Counted from the stretch's first letter, positions 3,906 through 24,938 are shown. The stretch: DNA of 32,000 bases from Candidatus Woesearchaeota archaeon (GCA_964526265.1 CAZGIL010000003.1:13063-45062); one strand, 5' to 3'. Made by a program: numbers and translations. Notes: generated by a model not told the origin, from the sequence alone.

Positions 3906-4132
3906 TTTTTTAGGTAATCTAGTATATTTTTATATCTTATTATTTGGATGGTGTAAAGAAAAAATATGGCAATAATGATTATGCCTGTGGTTATGCCCAA
4001 TTTATTCTTGAAAGAGAGGTCACGGACTATGTAATAACCTATTGACATTGATAACGCCAGAGCAATAAAAGATAAAAGCCAAGTTCTTGTATTTTCATAC
4101 TTAATTTTCAGTAATTCGTATTTTTTATTCAT
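3902..4132 (-). CDS. Small two-TM membrane protein; function unknown
   Basis: 76-aa ORF with two hydrophobic helices (WLLSFIALALSMSIGYYIV and ITTGIIIIAIFFLYTIQII). 4-nt start/stop overlaps with both neighbours suggest translational coupling. Confidence 0.5.
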   Translation of the reverse strand: MNKKYELLKIKYENTRTWLLSFIALALSMSIGYYIVRDLSFKNKLGITTGIIIIAIFFLYTIQIIRYKNILDYLKK

Positions 4133-5220
4133 AACCCAACTTCCTTAAAATTTATAATGCTTACAGAGCAGGGAGCAGTGCTACATCCATCATTGTTATA
4201 AACCTTGAAAGATTTTTCTTCGCCTGCTTCAATCTCAAAAATACTACTCTCTGTTGAATCCTTACCAAACCAATTAGAATAGATGCGATAGGTTACATTC
4301 AAAGATACACTTTTTTGTTGATTGTTTTTTATTATTACGTCTGTTTTGGAGCCAGTAACAATAATTGGCTCAACTTTAGGTTGTTCAGGAATTAAATTTA
4401 TATTCGGGTTCTCTTTGGGATAATTTTTAATTGCATCTCTTTTATTCTCATTATTTAATGCAAAATATCCGATTAGTATAATTACCAAGACAATTATCCC
4501 GATAAAAAAATATTTTTTCCAACCCCTTTTCTTTTCTTTACTCGTCTTTATTGGTTTTTCTAAATTGTTTTTATGTCTTTCTTGAACTTCTTTTTTCTTT
4601 GTGTTATATCTTCTTAACATTTCTTCTTCAACTTTTTTCTTCTTCTTTTCCTCTTGTTCTTTGATAATATTCTTAAATTCTTCTTTATTGCCCACAATTT
4701 CATTAACCTCTTTTTTAGTTATTTTTCTTCCCGTTACCCGATAAAATGTTAAAACTTCCTTAATAAATTCTTCATCTTCATCCATTAATAATCCAATTGA
4801 GCCCTCCTCAAATTCTACTCCTGCTTTTTTTAATAAATATTTATAAACTTCTTCCTGACTTTCTAAACTTTCTAAATATTCTCTTTCTCTTTTGGCTTCT
4901 TTCTCAATTGTAAATTCATACCAAGCATCAGAACACGCTTCCTTCCAAGTCAAATCCCCCTTTCCTTTTTTATCTATAATCTGGTGCAAATCAATGTGTT
5001 CTTCTGTAGTTAATAAAGCCAAATTTCCTATAAGATTATTTTTTTTATCTCCATCAATGTGATGAATCTCATATTTACTAAATGGAAGCTTATACTTTTT
5101 TCTGTTTTTCAAATAAATTTTATGATATGCGACTTTTCTGTGCCAAGCATTTGAATGATTATTTTCTCTGATATATCCATATTCATCCTCATAAAATTCT
5201 TTATTATATTTTTTATTCAT
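4129..5220 (-). CDS. Membrane-anchored HNH endonuclease-domain protein (N-terminal HNH, Lys/Glu-rich coiled segment, one TM, beta-rich C-terminal ectodomain)
   Basis: YEIHHIDGDKKNNLIGNLALLTTEEHIDLH fits the HNH_3-type motif (HH..G....N...NL.L.T..EH). A long charged stretch (EEKKKKKVEEEM) is followed by KKRGWKK plus the TM YFFIGIIVLVIILIGYFAL. The ~105-aa C-terminal domain contains CSTAPC. Confidence 0.7.
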   Translation of the reverse strand: MNKKYNKEFYEDEYGYIRENNHSNAWHRKVAYHKIYLKNRKKYKLPFSKYEIHHIDGDKKNNLIGNLALLTTEEHIDLHQIIDKKGKGDLTWKEACSDAWYEFTIEKEAKREREYLESLESQEEVYKYLLKKAGVEFEEGSIGLLMDEDEEFIKEVLTFYRVTGRKITKKEVNEIVGNKEEFKNIIKEQEEKKKKKVEEEMLRRYNTKKKEVQERHKNNLEKPIKTSKEKKRGWKKYFFIGIIVLVIILIGYFALNNENKRDAIKNYPKENPNINLIPEQPKVEPIIVTGSKTDVIIKNNQQKSVSLNVTYRIYSNWFGKDSTESSIFEIEAGEEKSFKVYNNDGCSTAPCSVSIINFKEVGL

Positions 5221-14015: not shown

Positions 14016-14366
14016 ATGGAACTCGTTGCATTATTATCTTCTGGGCAAGGAACCTGGGCGCAGGTTTCTGGGTTGATGAAATACGGCGAGTGGGATAAAA
14101 TAATTCTCGTTGGGGGAGATTTTGCAAAAGATTTCAAACACGAAAAGCCGTTTGAATTTGTGAAGGTTGATTTGAATGGGAAATTAAAAGAATTGCGTGA
14201 TGAGATTATTGAAAAGTTAAAAGGAAAAATAGACGGAACGGAAGTTGCTCTCAGTGTAGCAAGCGGAGACGGAAAGGAGCACATGGCTTTAATCTCGGGG
14301 TTATTGTCAATTCCAGCAGGGGTTAGATTCGTTGCGCTTACAAAAGAGGGTGTTATTTATTTGTAA
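14016..14366 (+). CDS. Small conserved-looking hypothetical protein (alpha/beta, Gly-rich N-terminal loop)
   Basis: ORF from ATG 14016: MELVALLSSGQGTWAQV...ILVGGD...ALSVASGDGKEHMALISGLL. Alternating strand/helix pattern. No family named with confidence. Confidence 0.55.
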   Translation: MELVALLSSGQGTWAQVSGLMKYGEWDKIILVGGDFAKDFKHEKPFEFVKVDLNGKLKELRDEIIEKLKGKIDGTEVALSVASGDGKEHMALISGLLSIPAGVRFVALTKEGVIYL

Positions 14367-14408
14367 GGTTTAACTTATCGTGGGGGCATTAATCCTTAGG
14401 ATTAAATC
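14365..14408 (+). repeat. Island repeat copy 1 (G5 box TCGTGGGGGCATT plus hairpin TTAATCC-TTA-GGATTAA)
   Basis: AAGGTTTAACTTATCGTGGGGGCATTAATCCTTAGGATTAAATC. It begins inside the stop codon of ORF 14016-14366. 39/44 identical to copy 3 by hand alignment. Confidence 0.85.
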
Positions 14409-14520
14409 TCCTACATAAACCGAATAGTTAGCGAGGTTTATGGTTCACTGCCCCCCAACAGCGTATTACTATTTGGTTGAGTGCGCTAATGGAGAGTTGA
14501 ACCTACACAAATCGAAAGAC

Positions 14521-14550
14521 TTATAAACTATGGTAATTTAAGTTACCATA
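14521..14550 (+). promoter_or_regulatory. Promoter and operator of the MNT-HEPN operon
   Basis: TTATAAA lies at 14521-14527, about 30 nt before the ATG at 14550. An 8-bp inverted repeat, TATGGTAA (14529-14536) and TTACCATA (14543-14550), fills the TATA-to-start interval and ends on the A of the start codon. Confidence 0.55.
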
Positions 14551-15170
14551 TGGTAGAAAATATTAACAATATCAAGTTAAGACTAATCAGCTTATTTAGA
14601 AGTAATTATTTTAATCAGTTTCACATAAGAGAAATGGCTAAACTTATAGGAAAGAGTCATGTTAGTTTACTCCCACACCTAAAGAGCTTTGAGAAAGATA
14701 AGATACTTATATCAAAGGATGTAGGAAAGAGCAGGGTTTATTCGCTTAACTTGGAAAACAATCAAGTAAGAGAGTTTTTGTCTTTGAGTGAGAAGAAAGA
14801 AACATTAGACTTACTAAACAAAGAGTTTTTAATAAAAAAACTACATACTGAGTTCCTTAACTTAAATTTAAATGGTTGTTTGATTTTATTTGGGAGTTAT
14901 GTTTCTTCAACACATAACAAGGAAAGTGATATTGATTTAATGTATATTGGGGAATTGAAAGAAAACGAAAAGAATAAGATAAAACAATTTGGCAAAACCT
15001 ACAACAAAGAAATACATCTAACTTCTATGAACTTAAAGCAATTCAAAGAGCAACTCTCTAAACAAGGAGCACTAATCAAAGAAATTGTAATGAACCACAT
15101 AATTTTATATAATCATGATATTTTTATCAATGAAGTATGGAGGCATTACTATGAACGAAAAGAAAGATAG
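14550..15170 (+). CDS. wHTH-fused minimal nucleotidyltransferase (MNT-type antitoxin-like)
   Basis: N-terminal winged-helix-like FHIREMAKLIGKSHVSLLPHLKSFEKDKILISKDVGKSRVYSLN. NTase signature LFGSYVSSTHNKESDIDLMYIG (GS...D.D). Confidence 0.8.
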   Translation: MVENINNIKLRLISLFRSNYFNQFHIREMAKLIGKSHVSLLPHLKSFEKDKILISKDVGKSRVYSLNLENNQVREFLSLSEKKETLDLLNKEFLIKKLHTEFLNLNLNGCLILFGSYVSSTHNKESDIDLMYIGELKENEKNKIKQFGKTYNKEIHLTSMNLKQFKEQLSKQGALIKEIVMNHIILYNHDIFINEVWRHYYERKER

Positions 15171-15663
15171 TCATTCATTTTGTTTTAAAAAGGCTGGCGG
15201 TTTAAAACTTGTTAATCTTAACGAAAGGCTTGTAGAAGTTTATAAGAAAAAGTCAAGGTCAGCACTAAACATGCTTGAGTCAGCTAAAGAAAAACAAGAG
15301 GATGAATGGATTTTAGATACTTCTTACTACGCAAAATATTTTATGGTTTATGCCTTGTTTATGAAAGTAGGAATAAAATCAGAAATACATGACTGCACTA
15401 TCTTTGCCTTAAATTCATTGTTTGTGGAAGAAGGAATAGTTGACAAAAATATTTATGAAGAACTCGAAAAGTCTAAGGATTTGAGAGTTGGAGCTCTTTA
15501 TTATGACAAAGACTTTGGTAGAGAAGAAATATTAAAGAGGGCTAAAACTGCTCCAGAATTCTGTTTAAAAGTAGAATCAATTTTGGACAAGATTACAAGA
15601 GAAGATATTGAGAAAGTAAGAACTAAATTTAATGTTTTAAAAACGGATTTATTAAAGCAATAA
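15151..15663 (+). CDS. HEPN-domain protein (toxin-like partner of the MNT)
   Basis: Start at ATG 15151, preceded by GGAGG, overlapping the MNT gene by 20 nt. All-helical. YYAKYFMVYALFMKVGIKSEIHDCTIFAL resembles archaeal HEPN partners of MNTs. Assignment rests on motif memory plus gene context. Confidence 0.65.
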   Translation: MNEKKDSHSFCFKKAGGLKLVNLNERLVEVYKKKSRSALNMLESAKEKQEDEWILDTSYYAKYFMVYALFMKVGIKSEIHDCTIFALNSLFVEEGIVDKNIYEELEKSKDLRVGALYYDKDFGREEILKRAKTAPEFCLKVESILDKITREDIEKVRTKFNVLKTDLLKQ

Positions 15664-16151
15664 TGAAAAAGATTAATCAAAAGGCTTATAGAAAAACTCT
15701 GAAGTGGATTGTTGAAGTTTTAAAAAGAAAGAAAATAAGATTTAACGTCTTAGGAGGATTAGCAGCATATGCCTACGGTTCAAAAAGAATGCTTGTTGAT
15801 ATCGATTTAGCTATAAAAAATAAAGATTTTTTAAAACTTGCTAAAGATGTTGAGGAATATCTTGTAGAAGAGCCACATTTTTCTAAATCAAAAAATTGGG
15901 AATGTTACTATATGGAAATTAAGTATGATGGAATTACTATTGAAATTGGAGGAGATCGTGGTTGTAAATTTCTTGATTCGAAAACTAAAAAATGGCAGAA
16001 ACTAGGAGATGGCTTATCAAAATCAACAATTAAGAAAGTTTTGGGTTTAAGTCTCCCAATCATTCCTAAAAAAGAGCTTATTGCATACAAAAAGAAATTA
16101 ATGAGAAAAGTAGATATTATTGATTTGAAAAATTTAGGTTATAGTAAATAA
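15663..16151 (+). CDS. Second nucleotidyltransferase-fold protein (Lnu/ANT-like GG...D.D motif)
   Basis: VLGGLAAYAYGSKRMLVDIDLAI fits the polymerase-beta-fold NTase signature. Its ATG overlaps the HEPN stop (TAATG). Confidence 0.6.
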   Translation: MKKINQKAYRKTLKWIVEVLKRKKIRFNVLGGLAAYAYGSKRMLVDIDLAIKNKDFLKLAKDVEEYLVEEPHFSKSKNWECYYMEIKYDGITIEIGGDRGCKFLDSKTKKWQKLGDGLSKSTIKKVLGLSLPIIPKKELIAYKKKLMRKVDIIDLKNLGYSK

Positions 16152-16171
16152 TTGAGGAAAACATCAGTATC

Positions 16172-16210
16172 TTAATCCTTAGGATTAAGTAATCGTGGGG
16201 GCATTTATTC
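16172..16210 (+). repeat. Island repeat copy 2 (permuted: hairpin first, then G5 box)
   Basis: TTAATCCTTAGGATTAAGTAATCGTGGGGGCATTTATTC, 21 nt after the stop of ORF 15663-16151. 25/31 identical to copy 1 over the box region. Confidence 0.8.
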
Positions 16211-16281
16211 TGCGAGAACTTGCCTAGCAAACCAAAAAGCTTATAAATTATAAAAATTATAATTATTATAGGAAATATAAA

Positions 16282-16488
16282 ATGGAAAACACGACAATTG
16301 CAATAACAAGGAGCATACAGGAGAAAATAAATGAGTTTGGAAATAAAGGGGAGACCTACTCGGAGATTATAGCTCGGCTAATAGATAGTGCAAAAAAGAG
16401 GCAGTTATACGATTTGTTAATGAACGAAGAAAATACAGTTTCTATAGAAGAGGCCATCACTAATTCTAAAAATAGATGGCAAAAGTAA
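16282..16488 (+). CDS. Putative antitoxin (archaeal VapB-like/RHH-like small protein)
   Basis: 68 aa. TIAITRSIQEKINEFGNKGETYSEIIARLI matches the archaeal putative-antitoxin pattern (TI.I...v...L......ES.S.vI..L). It overlaps the downstream toxin-like gene by 13 nt. Confidence 0.6.
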   Translation: MENTTIAITRSIQEKINEFGNKGETYSEIIARLIDSAKKRQLYDLLMNEENTVSIEEAITNSKNRWQK

Positions 16489-16817
16489 TATTTACTAAAA
16501 AACTTGAAGAAGAGATAAACAAAACATTCAAGAAAGAATCAACTAAGACATTTGAGTCTATGCGAGAACTGGAGAAGAATCCACATAAGGGCAAACCTCT
16601 GGGACAAGTTGGAGGAATAGTTATCAAGGAAATAAGGCGAGAGTCCTACAGATTCTATTTTATAACCGATGGATTCAAGTTAAAGATGCTTCAGAAAGAA
16701 GAATTGACTGATTTATTAATAAAATTTGTGCGCATGTCCGACAAAAAAGAACAGCAAAAAACAATTGACGAAATTAAAGACGTTTTAAGGAAGATTGGAG
16801 AAGAAGGTTTTAATTAA
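16476..16817 (+). CDS. RelE/ParE-like toxin with a C-terminal helical extension
   Basis: ELEKNPHKGKPLGQVGGIVIKEIRRESYRFYFI fits the RelE/ParE core (..P..G..L......r...yR..Y.i). 113 aa, longer than I recall for typical family members. Confidence 0.6.
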   Translation: MAKVIFTKKLEEEINKTFKKESTKTFESMRELEKNPHKGKPLGQVGGIVIKEIRRESYRFYFITDGFKLKMLQKEELTDLLIKFVRMSDKKEQQKTIDEIKDVLRKIGEEGFN

Positions 16818-16838
16818 AGATTACAACCCCTGCCTGCT

Positions 16839-16882
16839 AAGGTTAAACATCTCGTGGGGGCATTAACTCTTAGGATTAAATC
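16839..16882 (+). repeat. Island repeat copy 3
   Basis: AAGGTTAAACATCTCGTGGGGGCATTAACTCTTAGGATTAAATC, 22 nt after the RelE-like stop. Its 3' part encodes the stop codon and the last two codons of taw1 on the opposite strand. Confidence 0.85.
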
Positions 16883-17900: not shown

Positions 17901-19328
17901 CTAAAAAATTGCCAATACCCAGAAGAACATAACCAGTGCGATTATGAAAAGGAAAAGATATGTCACAAAACTAAACGCTTTTTTAGCAAATACTTCACTC
18001 CCAGTAATTCCCCATAACGTTAGATAAAAGAATCTTCCCCCATCAAAGATACCTGCGGGAAGCATATTTACAAGAGCAACACTTATACTTATTAGAATTA
18101 ACCACCATAAAAGGTTGTAAATAAAGAGGCTGGCATCTCCCAGTCTTGGTTGGTAAAATGTGTACGGGTCCTTGAAAGATGCAAGAGCGCTTATTATCCT
18201 TCCCAAAACATTCCCGCTCTCTGTCTGCGAGAACGCTATTCCCAACCAGGGTTCGCTTTGGTTTTGAGGGTTTTTACCCAGAGTAATTCTGTACTCAAGA
18301 GTTTCGCTGGTTGTTCGAGTTGTTATTGTTATGTTGTCTCCTGGAGAATATTTTAAAAATTCTTCACTTAGTTGTTCTATATTCGTTACTTTTACCCCAT
18401 CTAATTCTGTTATTGCTCCAAATAATCCCGCTTCTGTAGCGGGAGAATCTTCATAAACCCCAATAAAACCAGAATTATTAATCTGTTTTTCTAATATTCC
18501 CCTGGTTGTTAGGAAAGTAAGATTTCCAACCATAATTTTATTCAATTCGGTGCCATTTATCAAAGAGATAACCGCCGAAAAATTATTTCCATCCACTGGA
18601 ATTCCATTAACAGAAGAGATGCCGTTGGAGGGAATAACCGCTACTTGGTAATTGCTAAATATTACTCCGGTTGGAATAAAAGCCAGAGAAAAGAAAATCC
18701 ACATAACTCCTAAAAAGAATATTGCAGTAAGCACATTTGCAAATGTTCCCGCCGCAAGAACCGAGAGTTGTGCAAACTTGCTCTTTTTAGCCATTTTTTT
18801 CTCATCAAGCTCAACAAAGGCTGCAAGAAAAACAGGGAGGAAGAATGGAAAAAAACCGAAGCCGGTTGTTTTTATTTTTACTTTATTATAAACTGCAACT
18901 ATTCCGTGGGCGAACTCGTGTGAGATTGCGATTATTGCGAGGATAACAATCCAGTAGGTGAAATTAAATGAAGGTAACCAGCTTAGATTGAATATCTGCG
19001 GAAGATAAGGTACAAGGGGGATTATGGGAGGAACTTTTATTTCTCTTACAATCAGAGGATTAAACACATAGATAGAAACTATTCTAACAACTAAATAAAT
19101 TGCTCCAATCATAAGAAGATAGCCGAGAATTATCGCAAGATAACTCATTATTTTTAGAAGTCTCGGATATTTTTTACCAACATAGTTTATCCATCTTATT
19201 CCCCAACTTGTTCTATAGAGATAAAGGAGCCCCTCCCTCTTCAGGTTCTTTCTGTTTCTACGAAGAAAGATAGACATTAATATAACAAAGATTACTAAGA
19301 AGGTTAAATCATACACTAAAAAACTCAT
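17901..19328 (-). CDS. Site-2 protease family (M50) membrane metalloprotease with PDZ-like insert
   Basis: HEFAHG zinc motif in a TM helix, the second motif VNMLPAGIFDGGRF, multiple TM helices, and a central soluble PDZ-like region. Confidence 0.85.
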   Translation of the reverse strand: MSFLVYDLTFLVIFVILMSIFLRRNRKNLKREGLLYLYRTSWGIRWINYVGKKYPRLLKIMSYLAIILGYLLMIGAIYLVVRIVSIYVFNPLIVREIKVPPIIPLVPYLPQIFNLSWLPSFNFTYWIVILAIIAISHEFAHGIVAVYNKVKIKTTGFGFFPFFLPVFLAAFVELDEKKMAKKSKFAQLSVLAAGTFANVLTAIFFLGVMWIFFSLAFIPTGVIFSNYQVAVIPSNGISSVNGIPVDGNNFSAVISLINGTELNKIMVGNLTFLTTRGILEKQINNSGFIGVYEDSPATEAGLFGAITELDGVKVTNIEQLSEEFLKYSPGDNITITTRTTSETLEYRITLGKNPQNQSEPWLGIAFSQTESGNVLGRIISALASFKDPYTFYQPRLGDASLFIYNLLWWLILISISVALVNMLPAGIFDGGRFFYLTLWGITGSEVFAKKAFSFVTYLFLFIIALVMFFWVLAIF

Positions 19329-19348
19329 CTTTTTTCACCCTTCATTAT

Positions 19349-19510
19349 TTATTTCCTTTTCAACGGTCTAAACGCTCTTTTCTTACACTTTCTGCATTTG
19401 ACCTTTCCCTCTAAAATCTTTTGAGGAGTCGCTTTCATTTTTGTTTTGCAAGCTTTGCATACAAAAACATTCTTGAAAATTCTGTTTGTTGCTTCAGGTA
19501 TTTTTGCCAT
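19349..19510 (-). CDS. rpl40e: 50S ribosomal protein L40e (eL40), zinc-ribbon
   Basis: Hand translation gives MAKIPEATNRIFKNVFVCKACKTKMKATPQKILEGKVKCRKCKKRAFRPLKRK (53 aa; C..C...C..C, basic). It starts 2 nt after the aIF5A stop. Below the ORF-track cutoff. Confidence 0.7.
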   Translation of the reverse strand: MAKIPEATNRIFKNVFVCKACKTKMKATPQKILEGKVKCRKCKKRAFRPLKRK

Positions 19511-24059: not shown

Positions 24060-24938
24060 ATGAAAAGGTATACCATCTCCAGAAAACTGAAAAATTATAT
24101 TAAATCTGCTTCATACACAATTCGTGAGATTAATCGGATGGCAGGGTTCGATATAAGGAATATTCTTAATAAAAATATAAGCATTAATGAGGTCCATCTT
24201 AAAAAGTTGGAAGATATTTTTAAAATAAAGTTTCGATTAAAAGAAATTCATTTTCACCCCGAGACAAATTTTGGATTTCTGCCAACAGATGTAAAAAAGA
24301 GGTTTAACTGCTCCGCGCAGTTAGCAGAATTTGTAGGGATTATGCTGGGGGATGGAAATCTTGACAGAAATCGAGTTAAAATTTCTTTGGATAAACGGGG
24401 GACGAATTATATAAGATATGTAAAACACCTTTTTAAAGCCCTATTTGGCGTAGAATTAAAACAAGTTAATGTATTAAACACAAATCAAACACACCTCCAT
24501 TATTATAATAATTGTTTGGTAAATGATTTGCTTAAATATGGGCTTAAACGCGGGGATAAAATAAGGAACAAGATAAGAATACCCCAATGGATTAAATTTA
24601 ATTTAAATTACTCGAGGTCTTGTATTCGTGGGCTTATCGACACCGATGGTTGTATTTACTTTTGCAAACGGGAAAGAAAGATTTATATCAAATTCACTAA
24701 TTTTAATCCCTTTCTCCTCAAGGATTTTTCTATTTTAACCACGGCATTGGGCTATCATTTTGTTAAGGCAAATAAAAAGAACAAAGCTCTTTATAGAAAA
24801 GATGAAGTAGTAAGATTTATTAAAGAAATAAAACCACTTAAAAGTGAGGGGATATGGGCCAACCTGGTTAAGCTTCGAGGTTTGGGACTTCGCGATCCCG
24901 GTTCAAATCCGGGTATCCCCATCACCCCCAATAAATAA
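24060..24938 (+). CDS. LAGLIDADG-family homing-endonuclease-like protein with N-terminal HTH; 3' end overlaps tRNA-Pro
   Basis: Two LAGLIDADG motifs: LAEFVGIMLGDGNL and CIRGLIDTDGCIY. N-terminal helix-turn-helix-like YTIREINRMAGFDIRNI. No in-frame stop until 24936-24938. Confidence 0.85.
   Translation: MKRYTISRKLKNYIKSASYTIREINRMAGFDIRNILNKNISINEVHLKKLEDIFKIKFRLKEIHFHPETNFGFLPTDVKKRFNCSAQLAEFVGIMLGDGNLDRNRVKISLDKRGTNYIRYVKHLFKALFGVELKQVNVLNTNQTHLHYYNNCLVNDLLKYGLKRGDKIRNKIRIPQWIKFNLNYSRSCIRGLIDTDGCIYFCKRERKIYIKFTNFNPFLLKDFSILTTALGYHFVKANKKNKALYRKDEVVRFIKEIKPLKSEGIWANLVKLRGLGLRDPGSNPGIPITPNK
24848..24921 (+). tRNA. tRNA-Pro (anticodon UGG); no encoded CCA
   Basis: Hand fold. Acceptor GGGGATA/TATCCCC. 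Anticodon stem CGAGG/CTTCG with loop TTTGGGA (G37). T arm CCCGG-TTCAAAT-CCGGG. Discriminator A. GC-rich relative to its surroundings. Confidence 0.9.

Follow-up and report, generated by a model that had tools for sequence, protein, structure and literature searches.

Repeats dividing a toxin-antitoxin island in a woesearchaeal genome are probably attachment junctions of a tRNA-targeting family of integrative elements of DPANN archaea

It is established that archaeal elements with a tyrosine recombinase target tRNA genes and form tandem arrays there (PMC6563490), and that tRNA fragments are commonly scars of the right attachment site, attR (PMC9897764). Here, we analyzed a 32,000-nucleotide stretch of DNA from a Candidatus Woesearchaeota archaeon (GCA_964526265.1 CAZGIL010000003.1:13063-45062, hereafter the window), in which an island of toxin-antitoxin and nucleotidyltransferase genes is divided by three copies of a repeat composed of a G-rich box and a hairpin. 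The three repeats are probably attachment (att) junctions, left by a family of DPANN elements that integrate site-specifically, and the island would be a two-cassette, integrase-less piece of an att-site accretion array, inserted away from any tRNA where two core genes converge. In DPANN archaea, whose genomes are tiny and which are host-dependent, the acquisition and exchange of accessory genes are poorly understood. In Streptococcus, cis-mobilizable elements (CIMEs) and accretion arrays occur at the att sites of integrative conjugative and integrative mobilizable elements; these are att-flanked units without recombination genes, and the arrays grow at regenerated att sites. The element family described here is widespread in Woesearchaeota, Pacearchaeota, and Nanoarchaeota and apparently undescribed; full-text literature searches returned no account of the family, of its site composed of hairpin and tRNA end, or, for DPANN archaea, of arrays of mini-cassettes without an integrase.

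According to the original prediction, one element is present three times in the window and nowhere else. The 13-mer TCGTGGGGGCATT indeed gave exactly three matches, at 14378, 16193, and 16852, all on the + strand, and when up to two mismatches were allowed, four boxes were observed against a mean of 0.25 in dinucleotide-shuffled sequences, with none of the 100 shuffles equaling the observed count. The accompanying 17-nt palindrome, TTAATCCTTAGGATTAA, is exact at 14389-14405 and 16172-16188, has two mismatches at 16863-16879, and has no further site anywhere in the 32-kb window. The prediction was also right that copies 1 and 3 are nearly identical and in the same orientation (89% identity across 45 nt), with the hairpin located 3' of the box, and that copy 2 is permuted, its hairpin being located 5' of the box. 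As claimed, copy 1 overlaps the TAA stop codon at 14364-14366, and copies 2 and 3 begin 20-21 nt past stop codons. The G+C content of the island is 30.9%, versus 35.1-35.6% in its flanks.

A scan of GTDB, one genome per species, with a degenerate box compatible with all three copies gave 37 matching loci, 31 of them in metagenome-assembled genomes (MAGs) of Woesearchaeota, Pacearchaeota, or Nanoarchaeota. In many of these, the box is the end of a complete tRNA gene and comprises a T-stem strand (TCG), an acceptor strand (TGGGGGC), and, as its final base, the discriminator A. A further 75 loci came from metagenomes searched for the box together with the hairpin, and boxes were surveyed in 108 loci (loci are designated by L numbers). 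The box-ended tRNA has the anticodon loop TTGCGGA, and ARAGORN identified a tRNA-Arg(GCG) that terminates exactly at the box, whose tRNA-derived part is hereafter called the core. The 108 loci contain 171 boxes, 23 of which end a tRNA (tRNA-Arg(GCG) in 21 cases), and the remainder are located between small open reading frames (ORFs). Many DPANN tRNA-Arg(GCG) genes (L043, L062, L069, L071, and others) contain introns of 25-68 nt; these genes were missed by standard ARAGORN and were detected only in intron mode. An origin from the T-arm was also considered for the sequences 5' of the window cores, and was rejected at only 7/17 identity.

Repeat copies elsewhere border accessory cargo or tRNA-Arg, not core operons. 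All 43 loci with at least two cores carry every core on a single strand. Core spacings above 100 nt (n = 51) have a median of 1081 nt and range from 515 to 4568 nt, and five further spacings correspond to 32-nt core-HP1-GTAA-core units, HP1 being the hairpin formed by the palindrome described above. Most cassettes are of a class with complete ends and sizes down to 0.5-0.9 kb. A loose core scan of viral contigs returned 39 single matches, all unrelated and mostly in GC-rich phages, and a comparison of filled and empty tRNA-Arg sites (L071 versus L044 and L054) showed a decayed distal junction and no clear contrast. In two MAGs, the array starts just 3' of rtcB, the gene for the tRNA-splicing ligase (L078:1035-2223 and L065:2229-4032), which is a recurrent non-tRNA location. 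Near tRNA-Arg, 12 loci contain a RadA/Rad51 gene split by an intein with a LAGLIDADG domain (for example L118:8074-10584, - strand). This and other recurrent large neighbors (NDK, RPA, RecQ, RtcB, and eIF2a) were considered as recombinases and dismissed as host genes around tRNA-Arg.

The same distribution bears on the idea that the repeat is a hairpin-guided single-stranded DNA transposon, a REP- or PATE-like element (Y1/HUH), or a non-mobile RNA signal that punctuates operons. Such elements would suit the hairpins beside both ends, the strict polarity (43/43), the insertion always 3' of one specific sequence, and the location of each copy just past a stop codon. Nevertheless, we regard this idea as extremely improbable. 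A Pfam scan of about 45 neighbors, which was not an exhaustive search, found no Y1/TnpA, TnpB, or RAYT. A terminator and promoter consensus scan of the window showed no enrichment and no terminator-like sites, and Rfam at gathering thresholds recognized only two tRNAs in the window and left the repeat without a match. Moreover, the copies are tied to accessory cargo or tRNA-Arg, relatives have the same gene ends without repeats, and the module is found physically joined to a tyrosine integrase gene (see below).

Around the core, the surveyed copies consist of a few recurring end types. At an HP1-type left end, the core is followed by HP1, a conserved block RTYWSC-TACATAAACCGAATAACTA (module B), a variable segment of ~64 nt that runs to GTTRAAC (module K), a TATA box, and the cargo. 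At an HP1-type right end, the cargo is followed by GTTGGGGAG (A box), HP1, GTAA, and the core, the 11th core base often being G here. The HP1 palindrome is invariant and module B is conserved in 59 unique left ends, 28 of which have TTRAAC at the terminus of the arm, where conservation stops. The core can also be flanked by at least two more hairpin families, HP2 and HP3, in the positions that HP1 otherwise has. HP2 ends read ...CCTTAACCTAAGGTTAAAYATC, core, TGTTACCTAAGGTTAATAATMKC, with the hairpin TTAACC-TAA-GGTTAA, and HP3 ends read GTGTAATA...TATTACAC. Ends are highly conserved across three candidate phyla while the cargo is unrelated. The permuted appearance of copy 2 is explained by these types, since copy 1 is composed of an HP2 right-end remnant, core, and full HP1 left end and copy 3 of an HP2 right end, core, and HP1 stub, whereas copy 2 is an HP1 right end, with the same hairpin-GTAA-core order as 31 right ends in other loci. 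The heptamers GTTTAAC and GTTAAAC, which the original prediction had matched to the R box of attC, are instead part of the right-end motif (HP2 type) that the att site carries. Folding of each intergenic region in the window revealed no structure common to the three copies beyond the 7-bp hairpin. Bridge-RNA-like complementarity between arm and core was considered and set aside; by eye, roughly a quarter of the copies carry TGCCCC.

For an integrase, all six-frame segments of at least 90 aa were screened using phmmer with lambda Int, SSV1 Int, and E. coli XerD as seeds. This resulted in a single match, a 442-aa tyrosine recombinase (L128:2898-4226) with a SAM-like N-terminal domain, a PF00589 match at 6.5e-19, and a C-terminal zinc ribbon, whose gene is located directly 3' of an HP2 right end, core, HP1, and left arm (modules B and K). 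In L069, the same int gene, split in two, follows a tRNA-Arg(GCG)-core-HP1-arm. A large protein database contained homologs with 64-97% identity, a second clade with 44-53% identity, and a broad DPANN XerA/XerD-like group with 35-40% identity. A core-HP1-arm module is located immediately upstream of the integrases in L163/164, L165/166, and L167 (64-69% identity); this holds for P0127, P0124, and P0129. In the case of P0128 (L170), only the conserved leader precedes int, with no core there, and the left-end module is located two cargo genes further up. The elements of P0127, P0124, P0129, and P0128 share a backbone of int, a small ORF, an HTH protein, an AEP-TOTE primase, a ~600-aa protein, and a serine resolvase. 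Altogether, an integrase is located directly behind a core-hairpin-leader module in nine loci that represent six distinct element copies, the elements measuring 7 to more than 11 kb. The prediction had proposed looking for a tyrosine recombinase near other copies, and an Xer-like integrase linked to the module is what was found there. IMG/VR contained no relative of this integrase. An SSV-type split integrase was considered and rejected, as the att site is non-coding and manual translation found no frame open across core and hairpin.

The element in L167 is located at a tRNA-Glu(CTC), and the sequence ahead of its HP1 is that tRNA's own 3' end (…TCGGCCGGGGCG). Therefore, the core is derived from the target, and hairpin and arm are element DNA. 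In the second integrase clade (P0136 and P0141; L168/169 and L172; 44-45% identity), HP2-type modules are found upstream in two independent contexts. One HP2-clade array begins at a tRNA-Glu(UUC) with the end CGGTGGGGGCA; among the elements at tRNA-Glu ends are those of L167 and L172. HP1 accompanies the clade P0121-P0129 and HP2 accompanies the second clade. L172 also contains a second, shorter Phage_integrase ORF of 221 aa (18690-19355, + strand), about 7 kb 3' of P0141.

The original prediction had likened the layout to chromosomal integron arrays. In an integron-type explanation, the module between cargo genes would be a long attC-like site recombined at G|TTRRRY by an IntI-type integrase acting in trans, and the tRNA-like box a passenger. 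Clusters of attC sites without an integrase have been reported in MAGs of Woese- and Pacearchaeales (PMC9668308), which speaks for it, and so do the arrays of small, diverse, toxin-antitoxin-rich cassettes. The Nanoarchaeota contigs for which that study lists attC clusters without an integrase include none of those recovered here. The arm ends in GTTRAAC, the homology between the window and L131 breaks at GTTGAAC, the core is directly followed by TTGAAC at the right ends of L073, L074, and L114, and a subset of copies is predicted to form a ~64-nt or 135-nt hairpin with RYYYAAC/GTTRRRY feet. However, RNAalifold on 13 and then 46 copies, on both strands, gave no conserved fold beyond HP1, and strict R''/R' hairpins numbered only 9 in 658 kb. 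The feet are part of the repeated GGTTYAA motif, which is more like arm-type protein-binding sites, and in the window only copy 1 has a GTTRRRY-ended module, copies 2 and 3 being without one. A conserved hairpin in module K was also considered and rejected, the mean z of single-sequence folds being only -1.2 and a column-pair scan being confounded by indels. Host and element DNA meet at the tRNA 3' end, most right ends coincide with the core, and the cassettes have their own promoters. Finally, the only linked recombinase is Xer-like: the integrases score best against the archaeal XerA model NF040815 of NCBIfam (96-118 bits), and reach 37-53 bits with the integron-integrase model TIGR02249, against a cutoff of 265. 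An integron mechanism is therefore highly unlikely.

The arrays do resemble chromosomal integrons in being co-oriented, in carrying small, diverse, often toxin-antitoxin cassettes, in having the recombinase usually off the contig, and in the GTTRRRY-like motif at one module boundary. They differ in that a tRNA 3' end and a sequence-conserved palindrome take the place of a structure-conserved attC, in the Xer-like recombinase, in having own promoters, and in being anchored at a tRNA instead of at attI and Pc. Hairpin-plus-GTTRRRY motifs in AT-rich archaeal genomes can mimic attC sites, which calls for caution. With elements that use the host Xer at dif (IMEX), they share an Xer-family recombinase, small integrase-less units, and tandem integration. 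Unlike IMEX, the target is a tRNA 3' end and not dif, and the Xer-like integrase is supplied by the autonomous relatives themselves, with only 35-40% identity to the XerA group of DPANN archaea that is presumed to be housekeeping.

Described tRNA-targeting elements of archaea are among the closest systems. In pNOB8-type elements, the cryptic elements of Thaumarchaeota, and PYG1 of Pyrococcus yayanosii, too, the direct repeats copy the 3' portion of a tRNA gene, with the complete tRNA on one side and a displaced fragment of it on the opposite side, and tandem arrays form at one target. A tyrosine integrase gene beside att (intact, as in the pNOB8 type) and a primase-type replication module are further likenesses. 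The present family differs in its DPANN hosts, in a 10-11-nt identity segment flanked by a family-specific palindrome, in an XerA-like integrase with a C-terminal zinc ribbon, and in that most copies are integrase-less units of 0.5-2 kb. Like CIMEs and integrase-less satellites, these units lie between functional-looking att sites, in tandem with or near integrase-bearing relatives. Unlike CIMEs, they occur in archaea, are much smaller, have their own promoters and mostly 1-3 genes, and mix HP1 and HP2 "dialects" in one array. The two cassettes of the window have att sites of the integrase-bearing family and contain no recombinase, as CIMEs do.

With these end types, the island of the window can be resolved into the following parts, all located on the + strand:

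14364..14377, +, HP2-type right-end remnant TAAGGTTTAACTTA, the left junction of the island, overlapping the stop of a conserved 116-aa host gene
14378..14388, +, core copy 1 TCGTGGGGGCA, an exact match to the final 11 nt of tRNA-Arg(GCG)
14389..14405, +, HP1 palindrome TTAATCC-TTA-GGATTAA, the start of an HP1-family left end and candidate core-type binding site of the integrase
14406..14503, +, left-end arm with module B, ATCTCC-TACATAAACCGAATA, followed by the variable ~64-nt module K
14514..14549, +, putative cassette-1 promoter (BRE/TATA GAAAGA-CTTATAAA) and putative palindromic operator ATGGTAATTTAAGTTACCAT
14550-15170, +, wHTH-MNT nucleotidyltransferase (Pfam PF01909/PF18765)
15151-15663, +, HEPN protein (Pfam PF05168)
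15663-16151, +, DUF2204 nucleotidyltransferase (Pfam PF09970)
16172..16203, +, cassette-1 HP1-type right end, with HP1 at 16172-16188, GTAA at 16189-16192, and core copy 2 at 16193-16203
16204..16247, +, probable decayed HP2-type left end TTTATTCTGCGAGAAC..., then the putative cassette-2 TATA box CTTATAAA (16240-16247)
16282-16488, +, DUF7557/VapB-like antitoxin (Pfam PF24434, PF02697, weak)
16476-16817, +, putative toxin of 113 aa, overlapping the antitoxin gene, no family match in Pfam or NCBIfam
16834..16862, +, HP2-type right end CTGCTAAGGTTAAACATC and core copy 3 (16852-16862)
16863..16879, +, truncated HP1-type left-end stub TTAACTCTTAGGATTAA (2 mismatches), the right junction of the island

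Read in this way, the island would consist of an HP2 right-end remnant, core, an HP1 cassette (MNT, HEPN, and nucleotidyltransferase), core, an HP2 cassette (VapB-like protein and toxin), core, and an HP1 stub. The left junction lies inside the HP2 right end. The remnant TAAGGTTTAACTTA matches the HP2 right-end consensus CTAAGGTTAAAYATC, which sits ahead of the core in L050, L055, L065, L168, and L172, at roughly 11/15 positions by eye, and is absent from relatives, in which the host gene ends ...GATTTATAA. Module K contains GGTTYAA-type motifs and terminates in GTTGAAC (14496-14502). The TTTATTCTGCGAGAAC stretch is about 65% similar, by eye, to the HP2 left ends TKTATCCTWAGGTTAACATTAGC of L153, L168, and L172, and at the end of cassette 2, CTAAGGTTAAACATC-TCGTGGGGGC agrees in 15/15 nt with the right end that precedes the HP2-clade integrases of L168 and L172. 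The right junction lies in a stretch, TTAAATCC, that is common to the HP1 stub and the end of taw1, and through this microhomology the stub overlaps the native taw1 stop (16876-16878). It is doubtful that copy 3 supplies the stop and last two codons of taw1, as had been proposed, given that taw1 terminates in an identical ...GGATTTAA in relatives that lack the repeat.

In cassette 1, a perfect palindrome, ATGGTAA-TTTAA-GTTACCAT (14530-14549), abuts the ATG of the MNT gene at 14550. It is identical in the L131 cassette and is likely an autoregulatory operator of the wHTH-MNT antitoxin. The MNT and HEPN genes are adjacent and overlapping, as in MNT-HEPN type II toxin-antitoxin systems, and match PADLOC PDC-M05A at 1e-15. 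The predicted gene content was roughly correct, except that the 113-aa ORF described as RelE-like matched no family, and each cassette has its own TATA box as stated. More generally, the description of cassettes bounded by conserved, co-oriented recombination-site repeats stands, and att duplications from an integrated element, which had been offered as an alternative, proved essentially the correct option.

In relatives that have taw1 at 70-86% identity, the gene order is M50 peptidase, taw1, a slot, the 116-aa gene, and rpl1-rpl10-rpl12. In the window, this slot corresponds to 14367-16875. Other genes occupy it in L080 (1236-1592, 118 aa), L081 (11008-11613, an NT5C-like protein of 201 aa), and L082 (10983-11264, 93 aa), and in L084 it is empty, the convergent stops of the 116-aa gene and taw1 being 2 nt apart. 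Since the relatives are without repeats and L084 is empty, the whole 2.5-kb unit with its three repeats arrived in the lineage of the window. The claim of an accessory insertion thus holds, and so does the expectation of an empty site in relatives, although this site does not carry the single repeat copy that had been expected. The slot itself is a hot spot for gene insertion served by some other mechanism. The 116-aa protein (14016-14366, + strand) is syntenic beside rpl1 in all relatives examined and has no Pfam or NCBIfam match.

The cargo between cores in other loci includes enzymes (S-adenosylmethionine-dependent and LCM methyltransferases, a 2'-5' RNA ligase, a nucleoside hydrolase, a low-molecular-weight phosphatase, and a HAD hydrolase), as well as AbiEii, ParE with a DUF7557 antitoxin, MazF, MNT, a Macro domain protein, HIT, a C39 peptidase, and an AAA_14/DUF4143 ATPase. 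No recombinase was present among the cargo scanned, i.e., the window cassettes and about 25 others. Several cassettes are shared between loci. L131 contains a homolog of cassette 1 with 86% identity over 651 nt; rightward from GTTGAAC (14496-14502) the window and L131 are 93% identical, versus about 65% upstream in the arm. DUF7557 and ParE pairs are cargo in L077, L062, L124, and L126, the ParE cassette being shared by four loci. A cargo gene of 127 aa is common to three loci, and to L112 by BLAST, and is preceded by an HP3-type left end in two loci and by a truncated HP1 arm in the third. Because identical cargo with intact ends occurs in different contexts, cassettes may be moved in trans.

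The recurrence of cassettes could instead reflect vertical descent and homologous recombination, if the repeats were fossil scars, that is, att remnants of full-length elements that lost int and most other genes and left immobile cassettes behind. There are signs of such decay. The conserved int leader, TAAATTTCGGTTTAT...ACGACCAAAA-TTTATATA, is kept in the integrase-less loci L043, L071, L099, L116, L127, and L130, and it precedes int as TAAATTTCGGTTTAT.GCTCTACGACCAAAA and then TTTATATA in L069 and L170, so loss of int does happen. The int gene of L069 is split, the ends in the window are degenerate (the A box is lost, the HP1 stub has 2 mismatches, and the HP2 left end is decayed), and the mosaic boundaries suit recombination between short repeats. 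However, one and the same small cargo, its promoter and ends intact, is found in unrelated contexts and species, the ends are well kept over three candidate phyla with unrelated cargo, and complete-ended cassettes of 0.5-0.9 kb predominate. Therefore, we consider it unlikely that the cassettes are only fossils.

How the att junctions of the preferred reading might work can be outlined as follows. The 3' end of tRNA-Arg(GCG) is the sequence common to element and target, and the crossover most likely takes place in it or at its edge. The palindrome (HP1 or HP2) and the ~100-nt arm are element DNA, and the cognate Xer-like tyrosine integrase may bind the palindrome. The repeated GGTTYAA/TTRAAC motifs of the arm are possibly arm-type sites, and the arm may also serve as promoter of the first gene. 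An autonomous member, with integrase, AEP primase, ~600-aa protein, and serine resolvase, would integrate at the tRNA 3' end, thereby restoring the tRNA end and displacing a duplicate of it. As a usable core would be regenerated at each event, further insertions would adjoin earlier ones and co-oriented arrays would grow. The 0.5-2-kb cassettes would have kept att ends and promoter but not the integrase, either after loss of int or as hitchhikers moved in trans. The island of the window seems to have formed as an array elsewhere and to have been transplanted, perhaps by secondary-site integration or by microhomology-mediated recombination.

Several observations count against this account. Only 2/108 of the motif-selected loci carry an integrase, and the pairing of hairpins with integrase clades rests on few independent elements. 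No second core was found within 9-11 kb of int in the retrieved DNA, nor any distal att end, so that no autonomous element in it lay between two cores. The 32-kb window contains no recombinase gene, as the prediction had already stated, and no tRNA-Arg gene. Core and hairpin are absent from L080, L081, L082, and L084, and the empty site bears no resemblance to the core, so integration at this location was not canonical. Homology limits of shared cargo are not always at the core, the window and L131 diverging at GTTGAAC, and in L131 a right end joins a left arm through one HP1 without a core (A-HP1-B-K). From these mosaic limits, the 32-nt units, and the 127-aa cargo, it follows that exchanges occur at the hairpin and the arm end too, which could be site-specific or could be recombination between short repeats.

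A bolder version is that hairpin and GTTGAAC exchange points are not decay but part of a multi-site recombination grammar. DPANN archaea would then have an integron-like gene-capture platform of independent origin, in which an XerA-derived integrase shuffles hundreds of promoter-bearing mini-cassettes (0.5-2 kb, with toxin-antitoxin, defense, and small metabolic genes) at a site that combines the 3' end of a tRNA with a clade-specific palindrome, with arrays at tRNA-Arg, tRNA-Glu, and secondary chromosomal sites. We put this forward tentatively, as a possibility less likely than not to hold in full.

For the att junctions as such, TCGTGGGGGC together with an HP1 or HP2 palindrome provides a sequence-searchable signature of the element family and its integrase-less cassettes, and it ties toxin-antitoxin and defense cargo to a specific Xer-like integrase. 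The family also offers a natural system for asking whether integron-like cassette arrays can evolve from ordinary tRNA-targeting att sites, and tRNA 3' fragments distant from tRNA genes can mark transplanted pieces of arrays.

Outside the island, two further ORFs in the window were noted. A 363-aa ORF with an HNH_3 endonuclease domain (4129-5220, - strand) lies in a low-GC patch (0.28-0.30) and adjoins the genes for ribosomal proteins L3, L4, and L2 (97-2894), and it possibly represents a small insertion or a homing endonuclease. The other, a 266-aa ORF with a faint LAGLIDADG_3 match (~24138-24938, + strand), has the L37ae gene on one side and the L11 gene on the other, and it overlaps the gene for tRNA-Pro(tgg) (24848-24921).

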